Below are positions 8,146 through 54,815 of a DNA stretch of 64,000 nucleotides, in pieces. Each line of letters opens with the position of its first letter. Within the stretch, counting starts at the first letter, position 1. Both the position numbers and the translations under genes were made by a program. The notes under the pieces were generated by a model. That model worked only from the letters and a program-made list of their open reading frames with translations, was not told where the DNA came from and did not search any database. Source of the DNA: Candidatus Parcubacteria bacterium (lineage in GTDB: Bacteria > Patescibacteriota > Minisyncoccia > Phycocordibacterales > UBA918); contig JAKFXN010000002.1 of NCBI GenBank assembly GCA_021731405.1, positions 3,151 through 67,150 of the forward strand, read 5' to 3'.

Positions 8146-8147
8146 GT

Positions 8148-9536: not shown

Positions 9537-9553
9537 TTCATAAGTTCATTTAT

Positions 9554-9916
9554 ATGCAAAAAAAAGTAACAGCAACGCCAAAAAAAGCAGCTGCAAAAAA
9601 GGCAGTCTCTAAAAAAAATCCCACTGAGGCAAAGAAAAAGTCTGGAAAGAAGACTCTGCTTATTGCAAATAATCAGCAATCGTTTTGGGTTAATAACGGT
9701 CAGATTCTAAACAGTTTGTTGGCTCTTGAGACAGCGCTCCAGGTGATGACTAAAGATACTTTTTCATACCATGTCGCCAAAGACAGGAATGACTTTGCTC
9801 AGTGGGTGGAATATGTCCTTGTGGATGCAGCCTGCGCCGCTGATTTGCGTAAGGCTAAGACTCCAAGTGCAGCTAAGACGGTAGTTGTAAAGCACCTAAA
9901 GACCTACCAGCTCTAA
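9554..9916 (+). CDS. hypothetical protein, Lys/Ala-rich N-terminus plus conserved C-terminal domain
   Basis: Histone-H1-like KKAAAKKAVSKK tail followed by a globular region FWVNNGQILNSLLALETALQVMTKDTFSYHV. Sits inside the glucan cluster. Confidence 0.45.
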   Translation: MQKKVTATPKKAAAKKAVSKKNPTEAKKKSGKKTLLIANNQQSFWVNNGQILNSLLALETALQVMTKDTFSYHVAKDRNDFAQWVEYVLVDAACAADLRKAKTPSAAKTVVVKHLKTYQL

Positions 9917-9919
9917 TAC

Positions 9920-11896
9920 ATGTCTCGCGCGGTCACTATTGGTAACGGGAGTTTACTTGTCGGTTTAGATTACCGCGGACAGGTTCGTGACTTGTATTTT
10001 CCACACGTTGGGGAAGCAAATCACGTGAGTGGTGCGAGTGGAAACTTTGTGCACCGTATTGGTGTGTTTGTGGAAGGGGCACTCTCTTGGCTCGATAATG
10101 AAGATTGGGTGGTGACTATTGGTGCGAGTGAGCACACCTCTACTGGTACGCTTACTGCTACCAATGAAAGGCTTCAAGTAATACTTGAAAGTCATGATGC
10201 AGTACATAACGAACAGAATGTTTTTTTGCGTAATTTTAGAGTAACAAATACAGGAAGTGTCTCGCGCGAAGTTAAACTTTTTCTCTCACAACAATTTCGC
10301 ATTTCAGAATCAAGACGCGGTGACACTGCCTTTTTTGATCCGCGGGTAAAAGCGATTGTGCACTATAAAGGGAATACTACTTTTTTGGTAAATGCTTTTA
10401 TGGGTGGCAAACAATTTACTGAATACAACATTGGGTTGTTTGGTATTGAAGGAAAAGAAGGTACCTATATGGATGCTGTGGATGGGAAACTTGAAAAGAA
10501 CCCAATTGAGCATGGCTCAGTAGATTCAGTCATTGGACTCTCAGCCGTTCTTGAACCTGGTCAAAATGCTGAGGCGTACTACTGGGTGGTCTGCGGCAAG
10601 ACGATACCCGACGTGCACACCCTTGATGAGTATGTGCTTGAAGAAACGCCAGAGCGGCTTTTGAATTCAACCGAATCGTACTGGCGTGCTTGGCTCGAAA
10701 AAGAACCGCGTAACTTATCTATTTTGCCAGCGCCACTGCGCACCCTCTACAACCGTTCCCTTATTACTATGCGTGTACATAGCGACAATGGTGGTGGAAT
10801 TATTGCTTCCAGTGACACAGACATGCTTCACCATGGGCGAGACACGTACAGCTATGTATGGCCACGAGATGCAGCCGTAATTGCAACTGCGCTTGATATT
10901 TCTGGCTACCACGATGTTGCTACTCGTTTCTTCACCTTTGTCTCAAATTGTATCGAGCCTGGTGGATACCTTATGCACAAATACCGCTCAGATGGTGTAC
11001 TTGGTAGTTCATGGCATCCGTGGATGCAGCATGGTGTGCCGCATCTACCTATTCAAGAAGATGAGACAGCTGCTACTATATTTGCGCTTTGGAAGCACTA
11101 CGAACGATGTCGTGATATTGAGTTTATTGAGTCACTATACAATCCGTTTATAGAACCGGCAGCAAAATTTATGTGTGAGTACATTGAGCCAACTACTGGT
11201 CTGCCCCAAGCATCGTATGACTTATGGGAAGAAAAGTATGGTACGTCTACTTACACCGCAGCAGCAGTATATGCAGCGCTTATGGCAGCTTCACGCTTTG
11301 CGATGATGCTTGGGAAAGATGATGATTCGCGAACCTATCAAGCGGTAGCGGAGCGAATGCAAACGGCTATCGGTACTGTGCTCTATGATGAATCACTAAA
11401 GATGTTTGTAAAACATGTTCTCCATAGTGAAGATGGTGACTTGACCTTTGATAAGACGCTCGACACCAGTAGTTTCTACGGCCTCATTGCTTTTGATGTT
11501 TTTGATATCGATGATCCAAAAATCACCGCCTCAGCAAAGACGGTACAGGACAGACTCCAAGTGCACTCAAATAGTAAAGGGTATATACGGTACGAAAATG
11601 ACGGTTATTACCGCATGAGTGATGCTGATACACCAAACCCATGGGTCATTACCACATTGTGGATGGCACAGTATTTGATTAAAAAAGCGACTAAGCTAAC
11701 ACACCTCAAAGAGCCGCTAGATTTACTTAACTGGACTTGTTCTCATGCAACTACGGGTGGGGTATTGGCCGAGCAGATGCATCCAAACACCAGAGCTCAT
11801 CTTTCAACTGCACCACTTACGTGGAGTCATGCCGAGTATGTCCTCACTGTTGATGCCTATCTAAAAAAAGTAGCCGAGCTTTCAGAGGGCGACTAA
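9920..11896 (+). CDS. glycoside hydrolase family 15 (glucoamylase / glucodextranase-like)
   Basis: About 660 aa. N-terminal IGNGSLLVGLDYRGQVRDLYFPHVG and a central (alpha/alpha)6-type region, typical of prokaryotic GH15. Confidence 0.75.
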   Translation: MSRAVTIGNGSLLVGLDYRGQVRDLYFPHVGEANHVSGASGNFVHRIGVFVEGALSWLDNEDWVVTIGASEHTSTGTLTATNERLQVILESHDAVHNEQNVFLRNFRVTNTGSVSREVKLFLSQQFRISESRRGDTAFFDPRVKAIVHYKGNTTFLVNAFMGGKQFTEYNIGLFGIEGKEGTYMDAVDGKLEKNPIEHGSVDSVIGLSAVLEPGQNAEAYYWVVCGKTIPDVHTLDEYVLEETPERLLNSTESYWRAWLEKEPRNLSILPAPLRTLYNRSLITMRVHSDNGGGIIASSDTDMLHHGRDTYSYVWPRDAAVIATALDISGYHDVATRFFTFVSNCIEPGGYLMHKYRSDGVLGSSWHPWMQHGVPHLPIQEDETAATIFALWKHYERCRDIEFIESLYNPFIEPAAKFMCEYIEPTTGLPQASYDLWEEKYGTSTYTAAAVYAALMAASRFAMMLGKDDDSRTYQAVAERMQTAIGTVLYDESLKMFVKHVLHSEDGDLTFDKTLDTSSFYGLIAFDVFDIDDPKITASAKTVQDRLQVHSNSKGYIRYENDGYYRMSDADTPNPWVITTLWMAQYLIKKATKLTHLKEPLDLLNWTCSHATTGGVLAEQMHPNTRAHLSTAPLTWSHAEYVLTVDAYLKKVAELSEGD

Positions 11897-28702: not shown

Positions 28703-28890
28703 GGGGCTTATTGTATGTGGTGTCTTGTAAAATGCAACTCCTGTCCACTTTTGTCAAAGTACATAAAACCTTTAAAAATAAGAGTCTAGGGAATAATTCA
28801 CTCTAGTGAACACACTAAATACCAATTTAGTGAAGATTCTTAGGTATACTAATTGCAGATTTAAACCATTTATTATTTTAGTCATATTGT

Positions 28891-31800
28891 ATGCTCAAAG
28901 TGTTTTCTAAGCTCAGCCTAGCTTTATTTTTACTCGTACCAAGCCTTGGGTTAGCTCAGGTCACCAACCTACCTTCTGTGCCACAACCAAGTAGTGGCCA
29001 GATAGTGGGACTCAATCTGCAAAACCCAACAGGGAGTAGTCTCGTCTCACAACCTGTGCGTTTTGGACAAGCTTTTTTAGCTGGAGCACTTTCTGGTACT
29101 TCAGGCATTAATGCAACGGTAAACGGAGTCGCTGCTCCCGCGCAAATTGACGTAAAGACAAAACACGCTGATGGCTCAGTGAAGTTTGGTGTTGTCACCG
29201 TGATGGCACCTGCTGTCTCTGCTAACACCGTAAACCCAACTCTTCTCTCAGCTACAACAAAAAGTAGTTCAGTCATTTCACTTTCGACTATGCCCAACTA
29301 CTCGCTTGTGGTAGACATGACTATGTCAGATGGAAAGAAATACAGCTTCAATGCCGCCACACTTTTGGCTGAAGCGATCTCTGCTGGGAAGGTTTCATAC
29401 TGGAGACAAGGGTCAGTAGTAACAGAGGGAAGAATTGAAGTACCAGTAGTATCTTCAATGCGTCTCGTGTTTGATATTTCTAAGTATCAAGATGGTACAT
29501 ACTCTACCGACGTTCATTTCAACAATGATGCGGCGATGACTTCTTCAGGTAATACGCTTACGTACTCAGCGACGATTACTCAAAATGGGAAAGTGGCCTA
29601 CCAAGTAAGCAACCTTAAACATCATCAATATCAAACCTGGCACACAGTAATCTACAGTGGAGCAACCCCAGCTATCAATCCACAACTCGATATTCCGTAT
29701 CTAGTAAAAACAAAGACAATTATTAATTTTGACACTACCCATGGGGTACTCACTGATGAGATTTCAAGTCTCACGTACAAACCCCTAGATGCAACTGGCA
29801 TTACTGAGTATATGCCTATGGCTGGAGCAAGAGGTGATATTGGGCCGATTACCAATGTAAATGCTGATTGGCTCCTCACGCAAGATGCTAAGGCTGCAAA
29901 ATCTGCTCTAGCACAAGCTGATGGTGCGGGTAGTGTGCCATGGCACTATTATGACCCGTCGAGTAAAGACTATATTTCACTCGATAAGTACCCTGACCTC
30001 TGGACGGATGAACGAGGAGATCCAACCCTAACTCAGTTTTCGAAAAGTACCGATTGGCAAGTAGACTCAGCTCATCAACCAAACCTTTCTTTCATCCCAT
30101 ATCTATTAACTGGTAGTAGATACCACCTTGATCAGATAAACGCACAGGCAACTCACGCTATCTTTATTGTGTGGCCAGCCCCGAGAGATGGTGGTACTGG
30201 ACTCGTTATTAATGATAACGACCAAATTCGTAGTCAGGCTTGGAATTTTAGACAAGTAGCTGAAGCGGCTTGGGCAAATCCAGACGGAACAGCAACCAAA
30301 GCCTACTGGGAAAGACTTGTAGACAACAACCTACAGAGTTTACTCAACAGAATACCGCAAATGACAAAAGCTCAAGGTGAACCTCATGGCTATATAGCTG
30401 GATACGCACCATGGCAAGATGACTATTTTCTTTCTTCTATGGCAGCTGTGGCTGGGCGGGGAAACGCCAAAGCGAAAAAAATTATTGAATGGATGTCTAA
30501 CTTTATGGTGGGAAGATTTGTGCACCTACCAAATCCCGAAGTCGGTATCACTGCTGAATTAACAAACTGGAAATCTGACGACTCTGGTTACATCACAACC
30601 TGGAAAGGTATTTCCGATGCTAACCCATCTTCTAATTCTGACGGCGGTACGTATGGACTACTTGGCTTGGGTTCAATTGCCAACACGTACAATATCACCG
30701 GTTCTTCAACAGTGTTACAAGTCTATAACAGGATAAAAGCTTTAAATTTCCCGACTACCAGTATTGATGATAGACGAACAGAAACACAGTTCAGTATTGT
30801 CCCAGTGGGTACTGGCGCAGGTGTTATTACACCCTCTCCAACTCCAACACCTACTCCGACTCCGATTCCAGTAGTAGCTCCAACCGCTACTCTGACCGCT
30901 ATCCCAACTTCAATCACCAGTGGTGGCAGCACTGTGGTCTCTTGGTCTTCAACTAATGCCACTACCTGTACTGGCACCAATTTCACCACTGGTGGAGCAA
31001 CGAGCGGTGCAGTCTCAGTTGCACTGGTGAACAACGCAACTTTCACGCTGTCATGTACTGGTGCTGGTGGTACGGTTACTAAGTCAGTAACTGTTAGTGT
31101 GGCCGCTACACCTTCAACTAAGTTCACACTTACAGACAGGGTAGCTGCCTCCGACACTGTTAATGTCCGTGCAACCGCTAACACTGCAGGAACTCTTAGA
31201 GGCACACAAGTGGTAGGTGCGCTAGGTAGTGTTGCTGGAGGACCAACTTCAGCCAATGGATATAGTTGGTGGAATATTAATTTCGACAACGGTGCTGACG
31301 GTTGGGCAGTGGAGGACTACCTTGTGAAATCGACAGTACCTGTTCCGACTCCAGCCCCTACACCAACTCCAACTCCAACACCCGTACCTGTTCCAACTCC
31401 AACGCCAGTAGTAGCCCCAACCCTCACCCTCACTGCCAGCAAAGCAGCAGTTGTGTCTCGAGAACGGGTAACACTCAATTGGTCAGCTCAAAATGCTACC
31501 AGCTGTGCTTCAGGCAATTTCCTTGTTTCAAGTACCACAGGTTCAAAGGTGGTCCGTCCAACAAAAAGTACTACATACACCATGACCTGTACTGGAAAGA
31601 GTGGTTCTGTGACACAGAGCGTGGGGGTAACAGTTGGTACTACCCCAACACCAACTCCGACACCTACTCCAACTCCAGTACCAACCCCTACCCCAACACC
31701 AACGCCGGTGCCTGCCCCTGTTCCAACTCCAACCCCGTCAGCTGGTAGCATGCCAACCGACTACTTCCTCTACCTACCATTTGATGGTTCGATTGAAGAG

Positions 31801-32661
31801 AAGGGTAGTGCAAAGAAAACAACCGCCGGAGGAAACGTTACTTACCAAACAGGCAAGTACGGACAAGCCGCCTACTTTGACGGTAGTTCACATGTGAGTG
31901 TGGAGATGGGAACTCTCAAGCCTACGTATACTGCTTCGTTCTGGATGAAGCCCAATCGACCAGCTTCCAATCGAGAATTTTTCCCAGCGATCTATGGTGG
32001 TAATGAAACTGGCTGCGGTTCTGCTCCAAGTGTTTCATATGATGGCTTGAAGCAGATTGTGGTACATACAACAGGTTGTGACGGTAGCGCAGAGTCACTC
32101 ATTGGAGGTTTTGGTCCAACCACATGGCATCATGTGACAGTGGTCGTTACTGACTCTTCTCGCCGTGTGTATATAAATGGCAGTCTTGAAGATGAAAGAG
32201 AAAACCTAGCAAACTCAGAAACTTCAGCCTCAGCTTGTTTCTTTATTGGCGGGTACCAGACTGAACCATGTAAACCAACGGACGGAATTTACTTCAAAGG
32301 CCTCATCGACGACGTTCGTGTATACAAACGCGCCCTCTCTGCTAGTGAAATCCAAACCCTCGTAGCTAGTACTCCAACCAAGTCGACGGTTGCTACAATT
32401 CCTGCGACATCAAATGGTTTTGTCCGAGCAGTGAAGGTTAGTACCATTCCATTTGTGCAAAACCTCGCCGTTGCCAGTACTGGAGAAGCGGTCACACAGC
32501 TCCAAAAAGTGTTGACTGCACTTGGCTATTTCAAAGAAGAAGCCACGGGCTATTTTGGACCACTCACCGCAAGCGCTGTCTCAGCCTTCCAGCGTGACAA
32601 TGGTCTTGAGCCAGTTGGAATTGTTGGTTCTAAGACTAGAGCGGTGCTTAATTTACGGTAA
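28891..32661 (+). CDS. giant secreted multidomain surface protein, paralog 1 (1256 aa)
   Basis: Signal peptide MLKVFSKLSLALFLLVPSLGLAQV. A roughly 650-aa N-terminal domain of unknown function. PT-repeat linkers. An Ig-like module (TLTAIPTSITSGGSTVVSWSSTNATTCTG). An SH3b-like module (VNVRATANTAGTL...GYSWWNI...GWAVEDYL). A LamG/concanavalin-like lectin domain (YFLYLPFDGSIEEKGS...). A C-terminal PG_binding_1-like domain (GEAVTQLQKVLTALGYF...FQRDNGLEPVGIVG). A terminator follows. Confidence 0.85.
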   Translation: MLKVFSKLSLALFLLVPSLGLAQVTNLPSVPQPSSGQIVGLNLQNPTGSSLVSQPVRFGQAFLAGALSGTSGINATVNGVAAPAQIDVKTKHADGSVKFGVVTVMAPAVSANTVNPTLLSATTKSSSVISLSTMPNYSLVVDMTMSDGKKYSFNAATLLAEAISAGKVSYWRQGSVVTEGRIEVPVVSSMRLVFDISKYQDGTYSTDVHFNNDAAMTSSGNTLTYSATITQNGKVAYQVSNLKHHQYQTWHTVIYSGATPAINPQLDIPYLVKTKTIINFDTTHGVLTDEISSLTYKPLDATGITEYMPMAGARGDIGPITNVNADWLLTQDAKAAKSALAQADGAGSVPWHYYDPSSKDYISLDKYPDLWTDERGDPTLTQFSKSTDWQVDSAHQPNLSFIPYLLTGSRYHLDQINAQATHAIFIVWPAPRDGGTGLVINDNDQIRSQAWNFRQVAEAAWANPDGTATKAYWERLVDNNLQSLLNRIPQMTKAQGEPHGYIAGYAPWQDDYFLSSMAAVAGRGNAKAKKIIEWMSNFMVGRFVHLPNPEVGITAELTNWKSDDSGYITTWKGISDANPSSNSDGGTYGLLGLGSIANTYNITGSSTVLQVYNRIKALNFPTTSIDDRRTETQFSIVPVGTGAGVITPSPTPTPTPTPIPVVAPTATLTAIPTSITSGGSTVVSWSSTNATTCTGTNFTTGGATSGAVSVALVNNATFTLSCTGAGGTVTKSVTVSVAATPSTKFTLTDRVAASDTVNVRATANTAGTLRGTQVVGALGSVAGGPTSANGYSWWNINFDNGADGWAVEDYLVKSTVPVPTPAPTPTPTPTPVPVPTPTPVVAPTLTLTASKAAVVSRERVTLNWSAQNATSCASGNFLVSSTTGSKVVRPTKSTTYTMTCTGKSGSVTQSVGVTVGTTPTPTPTPTPTPVPTPTPTPTPVPAPVPTPTPSAGSMPTDYFLYLPFDGSIEEKGSAKKTTAGGNVTYQTGKYGQAAYFDGSSHVSVEMGTLKPTYTASFWMKPNRPASNREFFPAIYGGNETGCGSAPSVSYDGLKQIVVHTTGCDGSAESLIGGFGPTTWHHVTVVVTDSSRRVYINGSLEDERENLANSETSASACFFIGGYQTEPCKPTDGIYFKGLIDDVRVYKRALSASEIQTLVASTPTKSTVATIPATSNGFVRAVKVSTIPFVQNLAVASTGEAVTQLQKVLTALGYFKEEATGYFGPLTASAVSAFQRDNGLEPVGIVGSKTRAVLNLR

Positions 32662-32681
32662 CTTGAAGGGATAAAATATAG

Positions 32682-32714
32682 AAAAGCCTGCGTTTGCAGG
32701 CTTTTCTATTTTAA
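32682..32714 (+). terminator. rho-independent terminator
   Basis: AGCCTGC-gttt-GCAGGCT hairpin followed by a T-rich run. Confidence 0.65.
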
Positions 32715-32815
32715 GTATTAAACCACAGGATGAGGTTTACAAAAGGGGATACTGGGGTTTGTCTCTAGTATAATTACATACAGATTAAAGCAAATTTATT
32801 ATTTAACTACCCGTC

Positions 32816-35800
32816 ATGTTCAAATTATTTTCTAAGCTCAGTCTAGCCCTCTTTTTACTCGTACCAAGTCTTGGGCTAGCTCAGGTCACGTATCTACCAA
32901 CCATTCCTCAGGCGACCGGCAGTCAAATTGTTGGACTTAATCTGCAAAACCCGACGGGGAGCAGTCTCGTCTCGCAACCTGTGCGTTTTGGACAAACCTT
33001 TTTATCAGGCGCACTTTCTGGTACTTCTGGTATCAGTGCAACAGTGAATGGTGCAGGTGCCCCAGCGCAAATAGATGTTAAGACAAAACACAGTGATGGT
33101 TCAGTGAAGTTTGGTGTCGTGACAGTTATGGCACCAGCACTTTCTGCTAACAGTGCCAACCCAACTCTTCTCTCACCTGCAACAAAAAGTAGTTCTGTCA
33201 TTTCGCTCTCGACAATGCCTAACTACTCCCTCGTTGTTGACATGACTATGTCTGATGGAAAGAAGTATAGCTTCAACGCTGGCACACTTTTAGCTGAGGC
33301 ACTCTCCGCTGGCAAAGTTTCATACTGGAGACAGGGACCGGTTGTGACCGAAGGAAGAATTGAAGTACCAGTAGCATCTTCAATGCGACTGGTGTTTGAT
33401 ATTTCTAAGTATCAAGACGGTTCATACTCAACTGATGTGCACTTCAACAACGATGCAGCGATGACAGCTTCAGGAGATACTCTCACGTATTCAGCTACTA
33501 TTACTCAAAACGGAAAGGTAGCGTATCAGGTGAGCAACCTAGCACATCATCAGTATCAAACCTGGCACACGGTTGTCTATAGCGCAGTAACTCCAGCCAT
33601 CAATCCGCAACTTGATATTCCGTATTTATTGAAAACGAAAGCTGTGCTTAACTTTAATACCACTCACGGGGTCGCCACAAATGCAATATCAGCCGTTACC
33701 TATACTCCGCTCGGTGAAGCGGGAATTGAAACCTACATGCCAATGACAGGTGGTCGAGGTGATATTGGTCCAATCACAAACGTAAATGCTGATTGGCTCC
33801 TCACGCAAGATGTTAAGGCTGCAAAATCAGCTCTCGCACAAGCAGATGCTGCCGGCAGTATCCCTTGGCATTACTACGACCCAACAACAAGTGATTATAT
33901 TTCTCTAGATAAACACCCAAAGCTTTGGGCTGATAGTCGAGGGAATCCAAAACTTACTCAGTTTACAAAAGATTCTGTTTGGAGTATTGATACATCTCAC
34001 CAACCAAACCTTTCGTTCATCCCATACATCTTAACTGGAAACCGTTACCATCTAGATCAAATTAATGCTCAAGCAACCTTCTCAATATTTAATTCTTGGC
34101 CGTATTACCGAAAGGATGGACTCGGATTGATGCTTAATGGGGGCGACCAGACTAGAGGGCAGGCCTGGAGTTTCCGTCAAGTTATTGATGCTGTTTGGGC
34201 AAACCCTGATGACACCACAACAAAGTCTTACTGGAGAAAAGTTGAAGATAACAATCTCCAGTATCTTTTGGATGCACGTTCTGCACGTGAGACTGAGCAG
34301 GGTGAGGCGTATGGATATGCTGCAGGAGCAAACTACGAAACATACATAGCTCCATGGCAGCAAGAGTTTTACTTTAGTGCAGTTGCACTTTCGGCACAGC
34401 GAGGAAATGCCAAGGCAAAAGAAGTAGCAGCGTGGATGTCTAACTTTATTGTCGATCGCTTCAATAAATTGCGTGAACCTCTCTCATCAGTTAACTACCG
34501 ATTCAACCATCGTAATGCAGCCGGTGCGATTGTAAAAACATGGTCTGGACTTTCTGATCAAAATCCTGCTACTCCGGGTAAGGGTTATTATTCACCACTC
34601 GGCCTTGCTTCACTTGCCAATGCATACAATGTCTCAGGATTGCAAAAAGATCTCGACACCTATAATAAGATTAAAGCACTGAACCCTCCTTCAACCAGTA
34701 TTGACGATATGCGTGTGGAGACACAATTCAGTATCGTCCCAGTGGGTTCTGGTGCCGGGGTTATCACACCTGCTCCAACTCCAACACCAACACCAACACC
34801 AACACCAACACCAACACCAACACCTACTCCGACTCCAGTAGTAGCTCCAACCGCTACTCTGACCGCTATTCCAACTTCAATCACCAGTGGTGGCAGTACC
34901 GTAGTGACGTGGTCTTCAACGAACGCTACTACTTGTACTGGGACAAACTTCAGTACTGGTGGAGCTGCTAGTGGAGCAGTGTCTGTAGCGCTTGTAAATA
35001 ATGCCACCTTCACGCTGTCATGTACTGGTGCTGGTGGTTCTGTGACTAAGACTGCAGCAACTACTGTTTCAACGGTTACCTCAACAAAGTTTAAGTCTGG
35101 TGATCGAGTTTCAACAACTGAAAATCTTAACGTACGAACAACTGCTAACACAACAGGAACTTTACTCGGCACACAGTCATTAAGTGCGCTTGGGTTTGTT
35201 GCTGGCGGACCAACAAATGCGAGCGGTTTTAACTGGTGGAACATTAACTTCGATAGTGGTGTTGATGGCTGGGCAGTGGAAGACTATCTTATGAAGTCAA
35301 CGATAGCTGTTCCAACACCTACGCCAACTCCAACACCTACGCCAACTCCAACCCCAGGAACAAAAAGTGTCTGTGTTGATACAATTTGTACATACACAAC
35401 TATCGCCAGTGCATTTGCAGCCGCAAAGAATGGTTCGACTATCACTATTTCAGGTGAATGGACTGCTGGCGGGGCTTTGACAGCAAGTAACGTAACCATC
35501 AAAGGTGATGGTACTGCACACCTCAAGGGTGGTGCTGTACAAGGAAAAGCGATTATTGTGACAAGTGGACAGAGCACCACAATTGAAAATATCGAGTGTT
35601 CAAACGCAACAGTACCAGACGAAAACGGCGCTTGTGTGCGACATCAAGGAAGTGGTCTGACTCTCCGTAATGTAAACTTCCACGATAATCAAAACGGTCT
35701 TCTCGCTAGCCCAGACAGCGGCTCAATCCTAATTGAAGGAAGTACCTTTGAGCGAAATGGATTTAATGGTGGTGGAGGATATGCACACGGAATTTATGTT

Positions 35801-37618
35801 AATGGTGGAAATACTGAACTCACTATTCGAAATTCGAAGTTCTTACGTAGTAAGCTTGGCGGGCACGAGATCAAGAGCCGAGCAGCTAAGACCACAATCG
35901 AAAATACGGTCATTGCTACCATTGACGGAGTTGATAGTCGTAATATCGACATTCCAAATGGGGGACAGGTGATCATTAAAAACAGCGTCATTGAACAAGG
36001 ACCAAGCAGTGAAAATTCAAACTCAATTGGTATTGGGCATGAAGGACTTACACATGCGGTTAATTCAGTTTTACTTGAAAATAACTATATTATTCTCGAA
36101 CGAAGTGGCACAAATGTGATGCTTCAGACACCAGGTATGCCTACTCCAGTAGTGAAGGGTAACACCATTATTGGCGGTACAAATCCTGGCGGTACCAATA
36201 CGTGGTATCAAAGTCGTTCAGCTGCTGGTATTGCTGCCTACCCATACTTGCCAAGTGCAGGTAGTGTACCTATGCCGACTTCCACCCCGACTCCCGTACC
36301 CGAGCCTACCCCAACCCCAACACCTACTCCAACACCTACTCCAACTCCAGTAGTGGCCCCAACTCTCACCCTCACTGCCAGCAAAGCCGCCGTAGCAGCT
36401 CGAGAACGGGTAACTCTTAATTGGTCAGCGCAAAACGCTACCAGCTGTACTTCAGGCAATTTCCTTGTTTCAAGTACCACAGGTTCAAAGGTGGTTCGTC
36501 CAACAAAAAGTACAACGTACACCATGACCTGTACTGGAAAGGGTGGTTCAGTGACACAGAGTGTTGCGGTCACTGTTGGCTCTACGCCAGCACCTACCCC
36601 TGTGCCCGAACCTACCCCAACTCCAGTACCAGAACCAACTCCAACCCCGACACCTACACCTACACCTACACCTACACCTACACCTACCCCAACCCCAGTT
36701 CCTTCAGCTGGTACTATGCCAACCGACTACTTCCTCTACTTGCCATTTGACGGTTCAATTGAAGATAAGGGCTCTGCAAAGAAAACAACTGCCGGTGGAA
36801 GTATTAGTTACCAAACAGGCAAGTACGGACAAGCGGCGTACTTTGATGGCAGTTCACACGTGAGTGTGGAGATGGGAACACTGAAGCCTTCGTACACTGC
36901 TTCGTTTTGGATGAGGCCAGACCAGATTGGTAGTGGAGCATATGGCTCAGCTGTGCATGGCGGTAGATCTGGAGCTTGTGTTGCAACTCCAAACGTAACG
37001 TACACTGGAGCGAACCAGATAGCGGTACATACAACAGGTTGTGATGAATCGACCACTCTCCTTGATGGCTATGCACCAAATACATGGGTGCATGTGGCGG
37101 TGGTTGTTGGTTCTTCAGACCGCAAAATATACATCAATGGAAATCTCGTTGATGACAGACAAAATCTAAGTAACCGCGGCACAGTTAGTTGGGCATGCTT
37201 CTTCATTGGAGCTCTTCAGGTGGGTGAGTGTAAGGCACCTGACAGTCACTTCAAAGGCCTCATCGACGACGTCCGTGTATACAAACGAGTTCTCTCTGCT
37301 AGTGAAATACAAACCCTAGTAGCCAGTGCTCCAACCAAGTCAACGGTCGCTACTATCCCTGCGACAGCAAACAGTTTTGTCCGCGCCGTGAAGATAAACA
37401 CCATCCCGTTTGTCCAAGACCTGGCCGTTATGAGTACCGGAGAAGCGGTCATACAGCTCCAAAAGGTGCTGACCGCACTTGGCTACTTCAAAGAAGAAGC
37501 CACCGGCTACTTTGGACCACTCACTGCCAGTGCTGTCTCAGCCTTCCAGCGTGACAACGGTCTTGAACCAGTTGGAAATGTTGGCCCGAAGACGAGAAGT
37601 GTCCTTAATCTACGGTAA
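32816..37618 (+). CDS. giant secreted multidomain surface protein, paralog 2 (1600 aa), with additional right-handed beta-helix module
   Basis: Nucleotide sequence is near-identical to paralog 1 over the signal peptide and N-terminal domain. Same PT linkers, Ig-like, SH3b, LamG and PG-binding modules. Adds a segment of about 300 aa (TISGEWTAGG...NVNFHDNQNGL...GGGGYAHGIYVNGGNTELTIRNSKF) with pectate-lyase-like beta-helix repeats. Confidence 0.85.
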   Translation: MFKLFSKLSLALFLLVPSLGLAQVTYLPTIPQATGSQIVGLNLQNPTGSSLVSQPVRFGQTFLSGALSGTSGISATVNGAGAPAQIDVKTKHSDGSVKFGVVTVMAPALSANSANPTLLSPATKSSSVISLSTMPNYSLVVDMTMSDGKKYSFNAGTLLAEALSAGKVSYWRQGPVVTEGRIEVPVASSMRLVFDISKYQDGSYSTDVHFNNDAAMTASGDTLTYSATITQNGKVAYQVSNLAHHQYQTWHTVVYSAVTPAINPQLDIPYLLKTKAVLNFNTTHGVATNAISAVTYTPLGEAGIETYMPMTGGRGDIGPITNVNADWLLTQDVKAAKSALAQADAAGSIPWHYYDPTTSDYISLDKHPKLWADSRGNPKLTQFTKDSVWSIDTSHQPNLSFIPYILTGNRYHLDQINAQATFSIFNSWPYYRKDGLGLMLNGGDQTRGQAWSFRQVIDAVWANPDDTTTKSYWRKVEDNNLQYLLDARSARETEQGEAYGYAAGANYETYIAPWQQEFYFSAVALSAQRGNAKAKEVAAWMSNFIVDRFNKLREPLSSVNYRFNHRNAAGAIVKTWSGLSDQNPATPGKGYYSPLGLASLANAYNVSGLQKDLDTYNKIKALNPPSTSIDDMRVETQFSIVPVGSGAGVITPAPTPTPTPTPTPTPTPTPTPTPVVAPTATLTAIPTSITSGGSTVVTWSSTNATTCTGTNFSTGGAASGAVSVALVNNATFTLSCTGAGGSVTKTAATTVSTVTSTKFKSGDRVSTTENLNVRTTANTTGTLLGTQSLSALGFVAGGPTNASGFNWWNINFDSGVDGWAVEDYLMKSTIAVPTPTPTPTPTPTPTPGTKSVCVDTICTYTTIASAFAAAKNGSTITISGEWTAGGALTASNVTIKGDGTAHLKGGAVQGKAIIVTSGQSTTIENIECSNATVPDENGACVRHQGSGLTLRNVNFHDNQNGLLASPDSGSILIEGSTFERNGFNGGGGYAHGIYVNGGNTELTIRNSKFLRSKLGGHEIKSRAAKTTIENTVIATIDGVDSRNIDIPNGGQVIIKNSVIEQGPSSENSNSIGIGHEGLTHAVNSVLLENNYIILERSGTNVMLQTPGMPTPVVKGNTIIGGTNPGGTNTWYQSRSAAGIAAYPYLPSAGSVPMPTSTPTPVPEPTPTPTPTPTPTPTPVVAPTLTLTASKAAVAARERVTLNWSAQNATSCTSGNFLVSSTTGSKVVRPTKSTTYTMTCTGKGGSVTQSVAVTVGSTPAPTPVPEPTPTPVPEPTPTPTPTPTPTPTPTPTPTPVPSAGTMPTDYFLYLPFDGSIEDKGSAKKTTAGGSISYQTGKYGQAAYFDGSSHVSVEMGTLKPSYTASFWMRPDQIGSGAYGSAVHGGRSGACVATPNVTYTGANQIAVHTTGCDESTTLLDGYAPNTWVHVAVVVGSSDRKIYINGNLVDDRQNLSNRGTVSWACFFIGALQVGECKAPDSHFKGLIDDVRVYKRVLSASEIQTLVASAPTKSTVATIPATANSFVRAVKINTIPFVQDLAVMSTGEAVIQLQKVLTALGYFKEEATGYFGPLTASAVSAFQRDNGLEPVGNVGPKTRSVLNLR
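34781..34825 (+). repeat. perfect hexanucleotide tandem repeat (CCAACA)x7 encoding a PT linker
   Basis: Read directly from the sequence. Lies in frame within paralog 2. Confidence 0.9.
36649..36688 (+). repeat. perfect hexanucleotide tandem repeat (CACCTA)x6 encoding a PT linker
   Basis: Read directly from the sequence. Lies in frame within paralog 2. Confidence 0.9.
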
Positions 37619-37627
37619 CCTAACCCA

Positions 37628-37660
37628 AAAAACAGCCTGCGTACGCAGGCTGTTTTTTAT
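37628..37660 (+). terminator. rho-independent terminator
   Basis: CAGCCTGCG-ta-CGCAGGCTG palindrome followed by TTTTTT. Confidence 0.7.
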
Positions 37661-48522: not shown

Positions 48523-51285
48523 ATGACAGAAGGTGTACCAAAACAATTCTCTTCCCCCGAGGAAGAGCTTGTGTATTTACGGCAACAAATCGCAGACCGC
48601 GAACGCGAATTATTGATGCGAAATCCTGAGACAGATGGAGCGGACACTGAGACTATCGGTCGCCAAGAAATCAAAGAGTACGCGACTTTTACGCCGCAAG
48701 TCATCTTGGCACGGGAACACGCCCTTGATCCCCATACTCTGGCTGCATCTGTCGAGCAGGTAGCTATTTCGCATGACCCAGTGGCCGATATTATGAAAGT
48801 GGCTACGGAAAAAGGTATTCGTAATGCTCTTTCAGTGCTTGAAAAAGTAAATAACGCTTACGTGATAGATGAGGTGCATCGTCAGCTGGTTGAATACATT
48901 AGTGCAGGAGCATCCTTTCAAGATTTAAAAGAAGGTATGGCTCCGTGGCATGTGCTCCATATGACCTTGTATGAAGTTACTCTGCCGGAAGTCACAGCTG
49001 TAGCTAGTAAAGAATATCAGCTGGCTGAGCTTGTTGGGATGATGGAGCAGTTGTTTGCTGGGTTACGCACTATCGGCTCACAGCAGGCAAATAATCACTT
49101 TGTAATTGAGATTGCTGTGGCAGACAACAGTGATGATATTGTATTTTACGTTGCTGTACCAAATCAGTTTGTGACGCTGTTTGAGAAGCAGACACTTTCC
49201 CTGTTCCCATTTGCTGAACTGACCGTAAAGTCACATGACTACAATATCTTTGTGGATGGGGGCACCACCCTTGTTTCTGAAGTCGCTCTAACCAAGCATC
49301 CTATTTATCCGCTGCGTACACATGAAGCGTTTACCTCAGATCCGCTTGCTGTCTTACTAAACGCTTTTTCTAAAATTGAACGTGAGGGTGGGGGAGCAGC
49401 AATACAGTTTGTGATGCGTCACCCTGTTCGCCAGTACCGTAAAGACTACGAGGGTATTATCAAAAATATCCAAAAAGGGATGAAGGCTTCGGAGGCTATC
49501 TCTCGTAGTACAGTAAGCGGCAGCCTCATTGCCGGTGTGAGTGATCTGTTTTCATCAAAAAAGAAAGACGCTATGGAGGAGCCAAAAACAATTGATTCAG
49601 AGAAAATTGAAATCTTTTCACGCAAAATTAAGACAGACATTATTGAGACCAATATTAGGATTGCTGTTTCAGCTAAAGAGCCACGCCGAGCGGAGCAAAT
49701 CCTGACCGAAATTGAATCCACCCTCAATCAATTTGGTGCCGTTGATGGAAATGCTTTTACTTTCAAACACAGTAAAGGAAGCGGCCTTCCAGCGATGCAA
49801 AAATCTTTTGCGTTTCGGGACTTTTCTGCAAAGGCAGCTCTTCCGCTTTCTCTCTCAGAACTCTCAGTCCTCATTCATTTCCCAAGTAACGGTATCTTAA
49901 GCTCACCACAGTTTAAACAGTCACAATCTGTAACTGCTCCAGCCCCACTCGATATGCCGACAGCAGGAACAATCTTGGGTGTAAATAAACATCGCAACGT
50001 CGAGACTCCTATCTATATGACAGAACTCGACCGAATGCGGCACCTCTACATCATCGGACAGACCGGTACGGGTAAGTCTAAGTTTATGACTAACACCATC
50101 ATCCAAGACATTCAGCAGGGAAATGGTGTTTGTATGATTGACCCGCACGGAACCGACATAGAAGAGGTGCTGGGTGCAATCCCTCCTGAGCGTGCCAAAG
50201 ATGTTATTTATTTTGACCCTTCACAAATGGATAATGTGGTAGGACTCAATATGCTTGAGTACGACGAAACAAAACCTGAACAAAAGACCTTTGTGGTCAA
50301 TGAGCTTTTTTCTATTTTCCAAAAACTCTATGGTGCCAATCCAGAGAGTATGGGGCCGATGTTTGAGCAATATTTTAGAAATGCCACTATGCTCGTGATG
50401 GAAGATCCAGAGAGTGGCAATACGCTCATGGATATCTCACGTGTGATGGTGGACGCACAATATCGTCGTTATAAACTTTCAAAAGCCAAGAATCCCGTTG
50501 TTGTCCAATTTTGGACAGAGATAGCTACCAAAGCAGGTGGGGAAGCAGCGCTTGAAAATATCGTACCGTATATTGTATCTAAGTTTGATGTTTTTACCGC
50601 CAATGACTACATGCGTCCGATTATCGGGCAGCAAAAATCTGCCTTCAATTTTAGACAAGTGATGGATGAAAGAAAGATTCTGTTGGTGAATCTTTCAAAG
50701 GGGCGGCTAGGTGAAATTAATGCCAACCTCATCGGTATGATTGTAGTTGGAAAGATTTTAATGGCAGCGCTCTCTCGGGTGGATGATCCGACGCGAAGCT
50801 TTCCTCCATTTTATTTACATATAGACGAATTCCAAAACGTTTCAACTCCAGCTATTGCATCAATTCTCTCTGAGGCACGGAAGTACAAACTCAGTCTGAC
50901 TGTCGTACACCAGTTTATTGCGCAGCTGGATCAAAATATAAAAGAGGCGGTATTTGGAAACGTTGGCTCCATAGTGTCGTTCCGAGTTGGTACTGAAGAT
51001 GCACAATTTTTGGAGCAGCAATTTGCCCCAGTCTTTTCAGCTAAAGACATTATGAATGTGCCAAACTATAATGCCTTTTTGCGCATTTTGGTAAATGGTG
51101 TGCCAACTAAGCCGTTTAGTATGGCAACAATGCCGCCTATTGTTTCTGACCCAGCTCGTGTGGCAGCTATTATTCAGGAAAGCGCGCTGCGTCATGGTCG
51201 TCCGCGAGCGGAAGTGGAAGCAGAGATAGCAGCGCGTTATGTTAAGAAGCCAGCGGCTGCTGGAGCAGCAGGCAGTATACTGTAA
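48523..51285 (+). CDS. large P-loop NTPase of the FtsK/HerA/VirB4-VirD4 (AAA_10-like) superfamily, soluble N-terminal 470-aa region
   Basis: Walker A IIGQTGTGKSKF and Walker B FYLHIDEFQNV. The following ARKYKLSLTVVHQFIAQLDQNIKEAVFGNVGSIVSFRVG block resembles the conserved C-terminal core of conjugative coupling/VirB4-type ATPases. No N-terminal TM helices. Confidence 0.6.
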   Translation: MTEGVPKQFSSPEEELVYLRQQIADRERELLMRNPETDGADTETIGRQEIKEYATFTPQVILAREHALDPHTLAASVEQVAISHDPVADIMKVATEKGIRNALSVLEKVNNAYVIDEVHRQLVEYISAGASFQDLKEGMAPWHVLHMTLYEVTLPEVTAVASKEYQLAELVGMMEQLFAGLRTIGSQQANNHFVIEIAVADNSDDIVFYVAVPNQFVTLFEKQTLSLFPFAELTVKSHDYNIFVDGGTTLVSEVALTKHPIYPLRTHEAFTSDPLAVLLNAFSKIEREGGGAAIQFVMRHPVRQYRKDYEGIIKNIQKGMKASEAISRSTVSGSLIAGVSDLFSSKKKDAMEEPKTIDSEKIEIFSRKIKTDIIETNIRIAVSAKEPRRAEQILTEIESTLNQFGAVDGNAFTFKHSKGSGLPAMQKSFAFRDFSAKAALPLSLSELSVLIHFPSNGILSSPQFKQSQSVTAPAPLDMPTAGTILGVNKHRNVETPIYMTELDRMRHLYIIGQTGTGKSKFMTNTIIQDIQQGNGVCMIDPHGTDIEEVLGAIPPERAKDVIYFDPSQMDNVVGLNMLEYDETKPEQKTFVVNELFSIFQKLYGANPESMGPMFEQYFRNATMLVMEDPESGNTLMDISRVMVDAQYRRYKLSKAKNPVVVQFWTEIATKAGGEAALENIVPYIVSKFDVFTANDYMRPIIGQQKSAFNFRQVMDERKILLVNLSKGRLGEINANLIGMIVVGKILMAALSRVDDPTRSFPPFYLHIDEFQNVSTPAIASILSEARKYKLSLTVVHQFIAQLDQNIKEAVFGNVGSIVSFRVGTEDAQFLEQQFAPVFSAKDIMNVPNYNAFLRILVNGVPTKPFSMATMPPIVSDPARVAAIIQESALRHGRPRAEVEAEIAARYVKKPAAAGAAGSIL

Positions 51286-51293
51286 TTACTACT

Positions 51294-54200
51294 ATGAGTT
51301 CTGAACGACCTACTACAACTAATACCCTTGAGACTGGTCAAATAATCAGGATATTCGAACAGACACAAAGTCTAAAGCTTACTCATGAGGCGGAGCACTC
51401 AGTCATGCAGAGTGCAGCCGACAAACTCAAAGAGGAGGGAGTGTTTAACACACACAAAGAGCTTTTTGTTGCGGCTTGGGGCTTACATGAACAGATTACT
51501 AGAGGTCTGAATGAGCTCATCGTCGCTGAAAAAAATAAAACACTGAGCCCCTATCACGTCAGACTTCTTCGTGATGTCGAAAATACAGATATAGAATTTG
51601 CTGCCATAAAAAACGAGGTTATAAAAATATTGACTACTCTGGGGTATGAAGAACAAGAGGTTCCTGAAAACCAAACAGCTCTAGAATCCGAGGCTCCTGC
51701 CGCGACTAATGAGGTGGCAATTGAAGTGGGTGCTAGTTCAGAACCAGAAATGTCCGAGGTAGCACTTGCTACGGAGGTGCAAGAAAATAATCCGTCGGAA
51801 ATAGCCAAACTAACAGAACTATATCGACTTGCCGATATTAGTGCGTTTAGAATAAATCCGAGCGAAAATAGAATTCAATATAAAACGTTTGATGTTATTG
51901 AAAGTGATATACAGGGCGTGCTTACTAATGCTGGTTTCAATAGTGGAATGGTCTTAGTCTTTATGAATGAGGCGGTGAATCGCCTTAAACATGAAATCAA
52001 TGAATTGCTACAGCGGCAAGCAGCAGAAAGTAACTCAGACGAGAAACAAAGATTGCGAGCAATAGTCACAGAGAAGTACCAGGAGATATTAACAGCTGTC
52101 GCTGGCTTCATGTTAACGGAAAAGGTAGACGAGGCAGAAGGGTTGGTTGATAGCGAGCTTCCAACCGAAGGTCTCGATAATCTTGATGACGCAATAGAGT
52201 CCACGCTTCAAGAGTTCGCTACTTTGGAACAAAGTGGTCTTTACACTGATAACGATACTGCTTTTAAGAAAGCGGCTGTTGCTGCTGGGAGACTGCAATC
52301 ATATACAGAAACGGATGAGGTCAGGGCGTCACACGACAAAGAGCGTTACTTACGCAAACTACAGGCTGCCTTGGCAGAAATCAAAGGTCAGACAGAAGAC
52401 AATGTCCCTGAAGTAATCCTTACCGACACGACAGCCCCTGAAATTGCAATGGAAGTAGCAGAGCGAGCCATTCTTGATGAAGCTGTTGCTGAGCCGGTCG
52501 TCGTGACTCCTGAATTCGCTAATCTTGAACCAGTAGAAGAAGTTTCACTCAAAAATCCAGGAGTGCTCTCTGTTGAGGAAGTGGCAGGAAAAAAGAAACA
52601 CGAAGCGCTGTTTGAAGTAAAGAGTGAATATAAAGAAAAACAGCAAGCCTACAAAGAGGCCTTAGCTGATTTTTACGAAGAGCAAAAAAGTAACGCCACA
52701 ATACAGTCACAAATCGGAGCGGGATTTAGAAAAATAACTGGCCTGGGCCTGAGTCCAGAACTCCCTCCAGCGATTTTAGCGTTGCAAAATGAATACAAGC
52801 AGTTACGGGCCGTCTACGCTGAGTCATTAAACCAAGCTCTTATCGAGCGTTCACAAAGAGAGGGAAACAGAGAACATAGTCTTGCTTCTGATGGAGCTAA
52901 GATTGCTTTTGGTAAGAAGTTTATTTTAAAACCAAATCAAGAGATAGTGGCGCTGCAAGAAACCGCCATACTGTCACCAGAAGTGAAAGAAAGGCTTGGT
53001 CGAGTGATGGAGTTGATGGCTAAACATAAGTGGGCCGCGAGAATTGGTATTGTGGCCGCAGCCGGTATTGTTGGTGGGCTAAGTGGTGGAGCAGGATTCG
53101 TGTTGGCTGGTGCTGGGGCCGCTAGTTTCCAGGCCTCTAAGATGGCTCTTTCTGCTGTCGCTGGTGCGGGTGCTGGGTACGGAGCAAATAGGCTGACCCA
53201 AGGTGGGGTAGATAAAGCCTCAGCTAATTTTGATACTACAAGCAAGGGGTTCACACTAGCTGATCTAGATGCGTTTGAGACAGAGCTCATTAGTGCCGAG
53301 TCGAACCTTCGGTCAGCCAAAACGAGACAAAAAGTCGCTACGATTGGCGCAGCTGTGTTGGCGGGAGGCACAACTGGGTACAGTCTCGCATCTGTTGATG
53401 TAGATAGTTTTTTGCCGGGGAATAGGGAAGGGTTAAGCAAGGAAGCGGTCGACAGAATAGTGGCTGATGAAATCGCTGCTTCTGGAGTCGTGGATTCAAA
53501 TAATCCTACAGCTGATTCTTCTCCCGTATCAACTGAACAGAAAGTCGAAGCAATACCAGAAATACCTGGTTTTAAGATTGAGACATTTACTATTCCGTAC
53601 TACGGATTTTCTAGTGGTGGAGAAACTTTTGAGACAGTAATAGCTAACACAAAAATTGAGGGAGCGTTTAGTACTGGTCCATTACCTGAAGCGAACAGGC
53701 TTGAACTCATAAAAGAAATAAAACTCAGTATGGATGGTTCGCTCTATGCTCATCCAAGCATACCAGAAGGTAAACTTGAAGCGGAGGTATTAAGCAAGGT
53801 GCAGGCGAAGTTCGCGGATGCTCCTTGGTACAGAGAAGCTGGAATAACCAAAATCAATATCGGGCATATGTACAACCAGGAATATACAATGCCTGGGTTA
53901 GAGCCTGTGGAGGTGTCTGAAAAAATAATAACCGGCGCGTCTCAAGAAAAAATTGGTTCAACCTATGTTGTACAAAAGGGAGACACTCTTTCTGAAATAA
54001 CTGAAAAAAGATTCGCAGAGCAATTGAAAGACATTCCAGCCAATAAGCGGGGAGTTCTTTTGGACGAATTATTTAGAAACATTCAAGCAGATGCTGACTT
54101 GCGTGGTTCTCTCGGTATTCGAAGTGGGGATGTCGATTTAATTTACCCAAATGAAAAACTAAATCTCGACGGTGTTGAAGCTGAACTAACGAGGCTCGTA

Positions 54201-54815
54201 GAGCGAGAACAGATACTGGAAAATTTCCGTACCTCCGGTCCGCTTTCAGTGGAGGCTGATGCTGACGTAAAAAATGTTCCTATTACAGTGGTTGAAAAAC
54301 CAGTACCAGCGACAGTAGATGTAACTGCTGATAGCGGAAGGGTGTACAAAGAAGCGGTACCAACACCTGTTCCAAAACCGGTTGAGCTAGTGGCTCCACG
54401 ACCGTACTCTCTAAATGGACAGTTCGCTGATACGCCTGCTTACAAAGAGTACCTGCAAAAAGTTTTTGGTACAGCGAAACTTATGGAGCGCGCTGTTGAA
54501 ACCGCAGCTACCAACTTTGATAAGACTACCTACGACATTTTTGAAAGCTTTGGTACTTACTACGAAAGCCCGTATCGTTTTCTTGGGGACATGACACTCC
54601 AGCAGGTAACGGAGTTTGAGACTCAGCCAAATGATCAAATCAGAGCTTTTTTGAATGATAATAAAATCAAGTACGAAACGTATTTGGCTTGGTTAGATAA
54701 AATAGATGAGATGGCTAAGGCTTTACCAAATCAAAGTGAGACCAGAGTGTCAGATCTCTTTACTCGGTATGTTGCGGAAACACAGTCATTGCGTCCTAAT
54801 TCATTGTTAAAATAA
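51294..54815 (+). CDS. large (1173 aa) envelope protein: acidic coiled-coil N-terminus, Gly/Ala-zipper membrane segment, LysM-like domain
   Basis: Starts 9 nt after the ATPase gene. The hydrophobic stretch IGIVAAAGIVGGLSGGAGFVLAGAGAAS is present. The LysM-like stretch is YVVQKGDTLSEITEKRF...IYPNEKLNL. Confidence 0.55.
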   Translation: MSSERPTTTNTLETGQIIRIFEQTQSLKLTHEAEHSVMQSAADKLKEEGVFNTHKELFVAAWGLHEQITRGLNELIVAEKNKTLSPYHVRLLRDVENTDIEFAAIKNEVIKILTTLGYEEQEVPENQTALESEAPAATNEVAIEVGASSEPEMSEVALATEVQENNPSEIAKLTELYRLADISAFRINPSENRIQYKTFDVIESDIQGVLTNAGFNSGMVLVFMNEAVNRLKHEINELLQRQAAESNSDEKQRLRAIVTEKYQEILTAVAGFMLTEKVDEAEGLVDSELPTEGLDNLDDAIESTLQEFATLEQSGLYTDNDTAFKKAAVAAGRLQSYTETDEVRASHDKERYLRKLQAALAEIKGQTEDNVPEVILTDTTAPEIAMEVAERAILDEAVAEPVVVTPEFANLEPVEEVSLKNPGVLSVEEVAGKKKHEALFEVKSEYKEKQQAYKEALADFYEEQKSNATIQSQIGAGFRKITGLGLSPELPPAILALQNEYKQLRAVYAESLNQALIERSQREGNREHSLASDGAKIAFGKKFILKPNQEIVALQETAILSPEVKERLGRVMELMAKHKWAARIGIVAAAGIVGGLSGGAGFVLAGAGAASFQASKMALSAVAGAGAGYGANRLTQGGVDKASANFDTTSKGFTLADLDAFETELISAESNLRSAKTRQKVATIGAAVLAGGTTGYSLASVDVDSFLPGNREGLSKEAVDRIVADEIAASGVVDSNNPTADSSPVSTEQKVEAIPEIPGFKIETFTIPYYGFSSGGETFETVIANTKIEGAFSTGPLPEANRLELIKEIKLSMDGSLYAHPSIPEGKLEAEVLSKVQAKFADAPWYREAGITKINIGHMYNQEYTMPGLEPVEVSEKIITGASQEKIGSTYVVQKGDTLSEITEKRFAEQLKDIPANKRGVLLDELFRNIQADADLRGSLGIRSGDVDLIYPNEKLNLDGVEAELTRLVEREQILENFRTSGPLSVEADADVKNVPITVVEKPVPATVDVTADSGRVYKEAVPTPVPKPVELVAPRPYSLNGQFADTPAYKEYLQKVFGTAKLMERAVETAATNFDKTTYDIFESFGTYYESPYRFLGDMTLQQVTEFETQPNDQIRAFLNDNKIKYETYLAWLDKIDEMAKALPNQSETRVSDLFTRYVAETQSLRPNSLLK

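Follow-up and report, generated by a model that had tools for sequence, protein, structure and literature searches.

An extra module of 299 amino acids distinguishes the second of two giant tandem paralogs encoded in a 64,000-nt stretch of a Candidatus Parcubacteria bacterium genome, here called the window (assembly GCA_021731405.1, contig JAKFXN010000002.1, positions 3,151 to 67,150 of the forward strand). This module, which is part of Paralog 2 (P2) and missing from Paralog 1 (P1), is a complete and intact right-handed parallel beta-helix domain, and its family is a remote homolog of polysaccharide lyase family 31 (PL31) of the CAZy database, detectable at the profile-profile level. The best explanation of our observations as a whole, to which we give a probability of roughly 0.55, is that P2 carries a PL31-like lyase module in a wall-anchored protein and that the two paralogs differ by an insertion or deletion (indel) that arose through recombination between linkers. 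The fold, the family, the homology to PL31, the conserved residues, the purifying selection and the boundaries of the indel are all observed, while we infer the catalysis, the substrate class, the mechanism and the direction of the indel.

A beta-helix module between two Pro/Thr linkers of P2

The isolated module matched the Beta_helix family PF13229 of Pfam in two stretches (E=6e-13; 49.1 bits for a cutoff of 25.9 bits), this score being 37.8 bits in full-length P2, and an AlphaFold2 model generated with 49 homologs displayed about eight coils of three short strands (predicted local distance difference test score, pLDDT, 94.9; predicted template-modelling score, pTM, 0.92). Both results support the beta-helix that had been predicted from the sequence alone at 35350-36250, coordinates that are accurate to within a few bases, and the repetitive segments on which this original prediction was based are all present in frame: NVTIKGDG at 35489-35512, GLTLRNVNFHDNQNGL at 35654-35701, GGGGYAHGIYVNGGNTELTIRNSKF at 35768-35842 and NIDIPNGGQVIIKNSVIEQG at 35942-36001. 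An assignment of the module to NosD was rejected, as the sole NCBIfam match was far below threshold (21 bits for a cutoff of 300), and the single match obtained when PDB sequences were searched with the module using phmmer, an alcohol dehydrogenase, was spurious.

P1 and P2 are tandem same-strand open reading frames (ORFs) that are 72-76% identical. BLASTP aligned residues 1-818 of P1 with residues 1-832 of P2 (72% identity) and residues 845-1256 of P1 with residues 1184-1600 of P2 (76% identity), leaving about 350 residues of P2 (~833-1183) unmatched in P1, and blastn located the P2-unique DNA at about 35356-36334, a segment that comprises the folded module and a second Pro/Thr (PT) linker. 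P1 is made, in this order, of a signal peptide, an unannotated N-terminal domain (N-domain), a PT linker, an Ig-like segment, an SH3b-like segment, a PT linker, an Ig-like segment, a PT linker, a Laminin_G_3 (LamG) domain and a PG_binding_1 domain, without any beta-helix, while P2 has the architecture of P1 plus the beta-helix module and the second PT linker. The two linkers that had been proposed to bracket the module were found on both sides of it, and P1 indeed passes directly from its SH3b-like segment (called from a sub-threshold match to Pfam SH3_3, E~0.03) to the next Ig-like segment through one linker. The features concerned are as follows:

28891-32661, plus strand: P1, 1256 amino acids (from the ORF list, translation, Pfam and BLASTP against P2)
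31336-31407, plus strand: VPVPTPAPTPTPTPTPVPVPTPTP, the one PT linker that separates the SH3b-like segment of P1 from its next Ig-like segment; site of the module in P2
32816-37618, plus strand: P2, 1600 amino acids (from the ORF list, BLASTP and Pfam)
35081-35302, plus strand: SH3b-like segment of P2, immediately 5' of the left linker (sub-threshold Pfam SH3_3 match, E=0.038)
35309-35356, plus strand: left PT linker of P2, VPTPTPTPTPTPTPTP, which forms a direct DNA repeat with the right linker
35357-36253, plus strand: beta-helix module, P2 residues 848-1146 (G848-P1146), 299 amino acids, between the two PT linkers
36269-36349, plus strand: right PT linker of P2, PMPTSTPTPVPEPTPTPTPTPTPTPTP, with ~76% DNA identity to the left linker over 46 nt
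36350-36583, plus strand: Ig-like segment 3' of the module in P2, 92% identical to its P1 counterpart (synonymous divergence, dS, 0.39), a sign of probable recent gene conversion
36845-37312, plus strand: Laminin_G_3 (concanavalin-like lectin) domain of P2, residues 1344-1499 (Pfam PF13385, E=1e-24)
37436-37606, plus strand: PG_binding_1 domain of P2, a putative peptidoglycan anchor, residues 1541-1597 (Pfam PF01471, E=1.7e-16)

By eye, the N-terminus of both paralogs resembles a Sec signal peptide. Their N-terminal domain of 640 amino acids had no match in Pfam or NCBIfam and is predicted to fold as a beta-sandwich followed by an alpha/alpha toroid (pLDDT 91.2). P2 is taken to be a secreted multidomain protein that probably binds peptidoglycan.

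When 1.84 billion cluster representatives were searched exhaustively with the module using phmmer, the top match was a protein (P0160) that is 93% identical over the module and is encoded on a contig of another assembly (GCA_040384045.1; this contig is called L009 below). L009 is syntenic with the window, with genes for ATP synthase, ApbE, UDG and Fpg on one side of the locus and adh_short on the other (75-89% nucleotide identity), but has one gene where the window has two, which encodes, in order, an N-domain, PT, Ig, SH3b, PT, the beta-helix, PT, an extra Ig, PT, Ig, PT, LamG and PG_binding_1. The proposal that the module is present only in the second paralog therefore holds within the window and does not extend to this other genome. 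The L009 gene contains a 100-N scaffold gap (9851-9950) inside its first Ig, flanked by a 55-nt exact overlap; its C-terminal cassette shares 69-93% identity with that of P2, but its N-domain (7563-9850) shares only 29-30% with the N-domains of the two paralogs. Either the N-domain was swapped and one paralog was lost, or the scaffold join collapsed two genes.

This ortholog also bears on whether the extra segment is a genuine part of P2 or an assembly chimera. Metagenome assemblers may misjoin sequences at PT-linker and Ig repeats, and L009 itself has its scaffold gap inside such an Ig repeat. Nevertheless, the same SH3b-PT-module-PT-Ig order is found in this independent assembly at the syntenic locus (80% nucleotide identity), the reading frame is continuous across the 1600 codons of P2, and the module resembles its host in composition and codon usage, making a chimera very improbable.

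A remote relative of PL31 lyases with its own conserved residues

PL31 was founded on endo-beta-1,4-glucuronan lyases (PMC6442616) and includes PsAly, the polymannuronate lyase of Paenibacillus sp. FPU-7 (PDB 6kfn), as well as the glucuronan lyases of Saccharophagus degradans and Streptomyces hygroscopicus; the activities of these founding members, beta-elimination of beta-1,4-linked polyuronates (glucuronan or mannuronan), are those given in PMC6442616 and PMC6796002. A PL31 profile (A4) was rebuilt from a published alignment of PsAly and three Paenibacillus homologs, and the rebuilt PsAly sequence was checked against 6kfn_A (E=7e-194). When the profile of the module family (A1) was compared with it using hhalign, the two aligned over 228-239 columns with a probability of 96.8-97% and E=1-2e-10. 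The best register scored 78.6, while the best alternative register scored 19.9 and reversed and column-shuffled controls scored 12-16. Since the alternative register and the controls score so much lower, the match to PL31 is not a generic effect of beta-helix repeats.

In this unique register, the catalytic pair of PsAly, Tyr184 (acid) and Lys221 (base), which are both essential according to mutagenesis (PMC6796002), is kept in the module as Y147 and K173 (module numbering). Three acidic residues of PsAly also have acidic counterparts, with Asp219 aligned to E171, Asp246 to D193 and Asp250 to D198. The codons of the aligned pair are:

35795-35797, plus strand: Tyr994 of P2 (module Y147), aligned to PsAly Tyr184, in the motif AHGIYV; Tyr in 266/272 domains
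35873-35875, plus strand: Lys1020 of P2 (module K173), aligned to PsAly Lys221, in the motif GHEIKSRA; Lys in 268/272 domains

Conservation was counted over 272 family domains from 261 proteins. Besides Y147 and K173, the residue is shared by 269 of these domains for N90, 268 for R95, 267 for H144, 265 for D198, 264 for E229 and 263 for R175, and the near-invariant polar positions altogether are K64, N90, R95, H144, Y147, K173, S174, R175, S194, D198, N220 and E229, at every one of which the P2 module has the consensus residue. According to the DSSP strings of the model, the conserved polar residues lie in or beside the first strand of successive coils, a pattern that would be expected for residues lining an active-site groove.

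The family itself is large. A word-indexed search found 224 relatives of the module from Proteobacteria and metagenome contigs, mostly standalone proteins of 300-400 amino acids with signal peptides and with product labels that are either absent or 'right-handed parallel beta-helix repeat-containing protein', while the exhaustive search retrieved 3259 cluster representatives at E<=1e-3, many of which have that label and no other, with 590 of them reaching E<=1e-30. Many of the relatives from the exhaustive search are long multidomain proteins, some with two or three tandem copies of the module (among P0161, P0163, P0164 and P0167), some with three fused CBM60 modules (P0167) and some with fused cadherin/Big_9 and LamG domains. 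P0163 carries thrombospondin type-1 (TSP1) repeats, which are more typical of eukaryotic proteins. A scan of metagenome contigs for close relatives gave only two fragments, with 42-43% identity. Of six standalone relatives examined, two are encoded within Wzx/Wzy/glycosyltransferase exopolysaccharide clusters and another adjoins a GGDEF gene. In two Photobacterium genomes (L002/L003, 9298-10644), the standalone relative is directly followed on the same strand by a gene of the di-haem cytochrome c peroxidase/MauG family, a pairing that is absent from the other four neighbourhoods examined.

Nei-Gojobori comparisons of P2 with its L009 ortholog gave the following nonsynonymous (dN) and synonymous divergences for five domains:

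Beta-helix module: dN 0.037, dS 1.15, dN/dS 0.032
SH3b region: dN 0.116, dS 1.35, dN/dS 0.086
LamG: dN 0.210, dS 1.95, dN/dS 0.108
PG_binding tail: dN 0.229, dS 1.32, dN/dS 0.173
Ig (last): dN 0.175, dS 1.00, dN/dS 0.175

The module is thus the most constrained of the five domains compared. This constraint bears on the hypothesis that the module is a non-catalytic beta-helix acting as an adhesin, a carbohydrate-binding platform or a rigid spacer at the cell surface, since its dN/dS is below that of the binding domains of the same protein. In addition, about 20 polar residues are kept in at least 90-98% of the 272 divergent domains and lie on consecutive coils, which is typical of an active site and not of a scaffold, and the relatives are mostly small secreted proteins that stand alone, in some cases encoded in exopolysaccharide biosynthesis clusters where processing enzymes are expected. 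We consider a non-catalytic role quite unlikely. Together with the PL31 homology and the Tyr/Lys pair, this strongest constraint narrows the earlier suggestion of a 'carbohydrate-active or adhesin' module toward its carbohydrate-active, catalytic half.

A catalytic module may also use another chemistry, being a glycoside hydrolase (of the phage depolymerase, GH28, GH87 or GH110 type) or a uronate C5-epimerase in which the conserved carboxylates D110, E132, E171, D193, D198 and E229 would do the work. The sole significant homology among the profiles tested is nevertheless with PL31, whose Tyr/Lys dyad falls on conserved residues, and the groove would be dominated by the conserved basic residues K64, R95, R175, R195 and H144, fitting an anionic substrate. 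The catalytic motifs of mannuronan C5-epimerases are YG(F/I)DPH(D/E) in AlgE and DPHD in AlgG; the AlgE-type motif is absent from the P2 sequence, and the AlgG motif was not found either. Such a non-lyase enzyme appears unlikely, if somewhat less so than a module devoid of catalytic activity.

Other families were compared as well. Searching PDB sequences with A1 gave only matches to the N-terminal cap, from carbohydrate esterase family CE8 and from PL6. CE8 pectin methylesterases were rejected, the hmmsearch match to PemA (E=1.4e-4) being confined to the N-terminal cap and the first coil (profile positions 52-111, chain positions 8-72). For PL6 alginate lyases and chondroitinase B (AlyGC 5gkq, Pedsa0632 7o84 and AlyF 5z9t), the profile match to AlyF (5z9t/7bz0; E~1e-3) covers only profile positions 57-158, and the Foldseek matches (E~1e-3) have TM scores of 0.36-0.47. 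RbmB, the Vibrio cholerae VPS lyase (PDB 9ozd/9ozl), is 14-15% identical to the module and was not matched by the family profile search at E<=1.

Considering these comparisons, P2 is most likely an enzyme anchored to the wall whose second catalytic domain is of the lyase type. The substrate of the module would be a polysaccharide containing uronic acid, cut by beta-elimination with Lys1020 as the base and Tyr994 as the acid; conserved Lys, Arg and His residues would line the groove, which would be more basic than that of PL31 enzymes. Because an invariant His replaces one of the metal ligands of PL31, catalysis may be metal-free or involve a different metal. P2 would then display on the cell wall two carbohydrate-active domains, the N-terminal toroid domain and the lyase-like module, along with LamG and SH3b-like binding modules, while P1 would be a one-domain version with the first catalytic domain only.

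Several observations weigh against a PL31-like activity. First, the cation site 1 of PsAly is made of Glu181, Glu216 and Asp219, and only the last is conservatively kept in the module: Glu181 is replaced by His144 (conserved in 267/272 domains) and Glu216 by Gly168, a position that is E, Q or G across the family with a consensus of E or Q. Second, Lys128, His154, Lys252, Tyr244, Gln276 and His278 of PsAly have no equivalents in the module, so that its second cation site (Tyr244 and Gln276) is absent and, of its cleft residues Lys128, His154, Arg156, Asp250 and Lys252, only Asp250 is kept; Lys252 is aligned to P200, His154 to N107, Arg156 to H109 and Lys128 to a gap, in an alignment that is unreliable N-terminal of Y147 (residue ~140), where it contains a 9-residue gap. 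Third, 6kfn was not retrieved from PDB sequences by phmmer with the module (E<=10) or by hmmsearch with A1 (E<=1). CAZy practice calls for significant direct sequence similarity to characterised members and, because direct searches fail to connect the two, we leave the module outside PL31. Finally, the shared groove is suggested by sequence periodicity and DSSP strings only, the large family has no characterised member, and three or four of the six neighbourhoods of standalone relatives are uninformative. The module family also differs from PL31 by conserved residues of its own (K64, N90, R95, S174, R175, R195, N220, E229 and R287), and the P2 module is embedded in a 1600-residue wall-anchored protein while PL31 enzymes are standalone.

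Origin of the module and direction of the indel

The PT linkers that bracket the module are direct DNA repeats (76% identical over 46 nt) placed ~950-1000 nt apart and, because they are direct repeats, they offer an obvious route for an in-frame insertion or deletion. The difference between P1 and P2 probably arose as an in-frame indel through recombination in repetitive PT-linker DNA, in line with the modular gain or loss between matching genes that had been proposed and that our alignments support. Domain indels at PT linkers are well known in modular secreted enzymes, and neither the beta-helix fold nor the modular indel is unusual among secreted carbohydrate-active proteins. Modular CAZymes with PT/PS linkers, such as multidomain alginate lyases and cellulases, likewise combine catalytic and binding modules on low-complexity Pro/Thr linkers, at which modules are gained, lost and duplicated. 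A similar event is visible in L009, where an extra PT-bounded Ig-like domain, 61% identical to the first Ig of P2, lies between the beta-helix and the last Ig (11440-11660; P0160 residues ~480-550) and shows, as a second example, continuing module turnover at a PT linker. P2 differs from these CAZymes by its Patescibacteria-like genome, by its C-terminal PG_binding_1 anchor and by its catalytic-looking N-domain of no described family.

The module may have been gained in the P2 lineage or lost from P1. A loss by in-frame deletion between the PT-linker repeats would have left exactly the single hybrid linker that is seen in P1, and the only close ortholog known (L009), which is adjacent to adh_short like P2 and is the sole gene of its type at that locus, has the module. 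On the other side, PF13229 was found in 0/39 homologs of the N-domain, and the 55%-identical Patescibacteria homolog on L001, the one locus retrieved when genome contigs were scanned with the N-domain, has no tblastn match to the module. For these two reasons, we lean slightly, at about 60:40, toward a gain by the P2 lineage and away from a loss by P1, which leaves an ancestral module somewhat the less probable of the two. In the SH3b segment, moreover, P2 and L009 share derived states that distinguish them from P1 and the outgroup L001, and dN is lower between P2 and L009 (0.116) than between P1 and P2 (0.183) or between P1 and L009 (0.187). Because of these shared states and distances, P1 is an older lineage and not a recent deletion derivative of P2, and the two genomes split only after P1 and P2 had duplicated and the P2 lineage already had the module. 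The module family, being mostly made of standalone genes, also makes a donor for an insertion plausible.

Exact-sequence matches were found for neither P1 nor P2, and a word-indexed search with the LamG-PG_binding tail of P1 returned only a 227-residue fragment and missed P0160. No donor copy of the module was found within the window. The GC content of the module (0.44), its GC content at third codon positions (GC3; 0.32) and its relative synonymous codon usage (RSCU; r=0.74) are within the range of the host genes; a recent horizontal transfer of the module thus has no compositional support.

Divergence between P1 and P2 is a mosaic. In the region 3' of the indel (31408-32658 in P1 and 36350-37615 in P2), dS is 0.39 for the last Ig and 0.63 for the PG_binding tail, compared with 1.5-1.7 for the N-domain and the SH3b segment, which suggests that 3' gene conversion later took place between the tandem copies and stopped at the non-homologous module. 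LamG, which lies between these two segments, is much more diverged between the paralogs (67% identity, dN/dS 0.26), possibly reflecting a diversifying binding specificity.

Surroundings and significance

Promoter-like sites lie upstream of each paralog (28751-28779 and 32773-32802), and a hairpin follows each gene:

32678-32709, no strand assigned: hairpin 3' of the P1 stop codon, with a stem core like that of the hairpin after P2 (by eye)
37627-37658, plus strand: terminator-like hairpin with a T-run, 3' of the P2 stop codon

The stem cores of both hairpins are very similar (AGCCTGC...GCAGGCT), and the terminator seems to have been part of the P1/P2 duplication unit. The arrangement suggests that each paralog has its own terminator and that P1 and P2 are separate transcription units. 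Two antisense ORFs on the minus strand (30723-31289, 188 amino acids; 34660-35244, 194 amino acids) lie within the stretches of P1 and P2 that encode PT-linker, Ig and SH3b-like parts; the biased composition of these repeats, and not the presence of a gene, most likely accounts for each of them. Elsewhere in the window, a GH15-family glycoside hydrolase is encoded at 9920-11896, and the region 48523-54815 contains a 920-residue ORF with VirD4/TraG-type coupling-protein domains (T4SS-DNA_transf, TraG-D_C, HerA-like) followed by a 1173-residue ORF that had no Pfam match.

On the evolutionary side, the indel is real but fairly ordinary domain shuffling at PT linkers. What makes the system moderately interesting is that a large, uncharacterised family remotely related to PL31, with an altered active-site composition, is found on a Patescibacteria-like surface protein. 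A further and more tentative reading, which we find possible but rather unlikely in its entirety, combines these elements: the module would stand for an undescribed PL31-related polysaccharide-lyase family of thousands of members, in which a His takes the place of the metal-binding Glu and the groove is more basic, and its recruitment in this Patescibacteria-like lineage would have given a peptidoglycan-anchored protein two catalytic domains with which to cut an acidic polymer of an envelope or exopolysaccharide. For an episymbiont, this polymer could be that of the host cell, and an actively reshuffled arsenal of surface enzymes would then be visible in the pair of paralogs, in the swapped N-domain of L009 and in its extra Ig.

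If the module is an active lyase, it would provide a functional handle on a large uncharacterised beta-helix family, which would probably be a new PL family or a deep subfamily of PL31. Concrete predictions of the function of giant surface proteins in Patescibacteria are few, and this would be one of them; the P1/P2 pair would offer a natural comparison of the same protein with and without the added domain.

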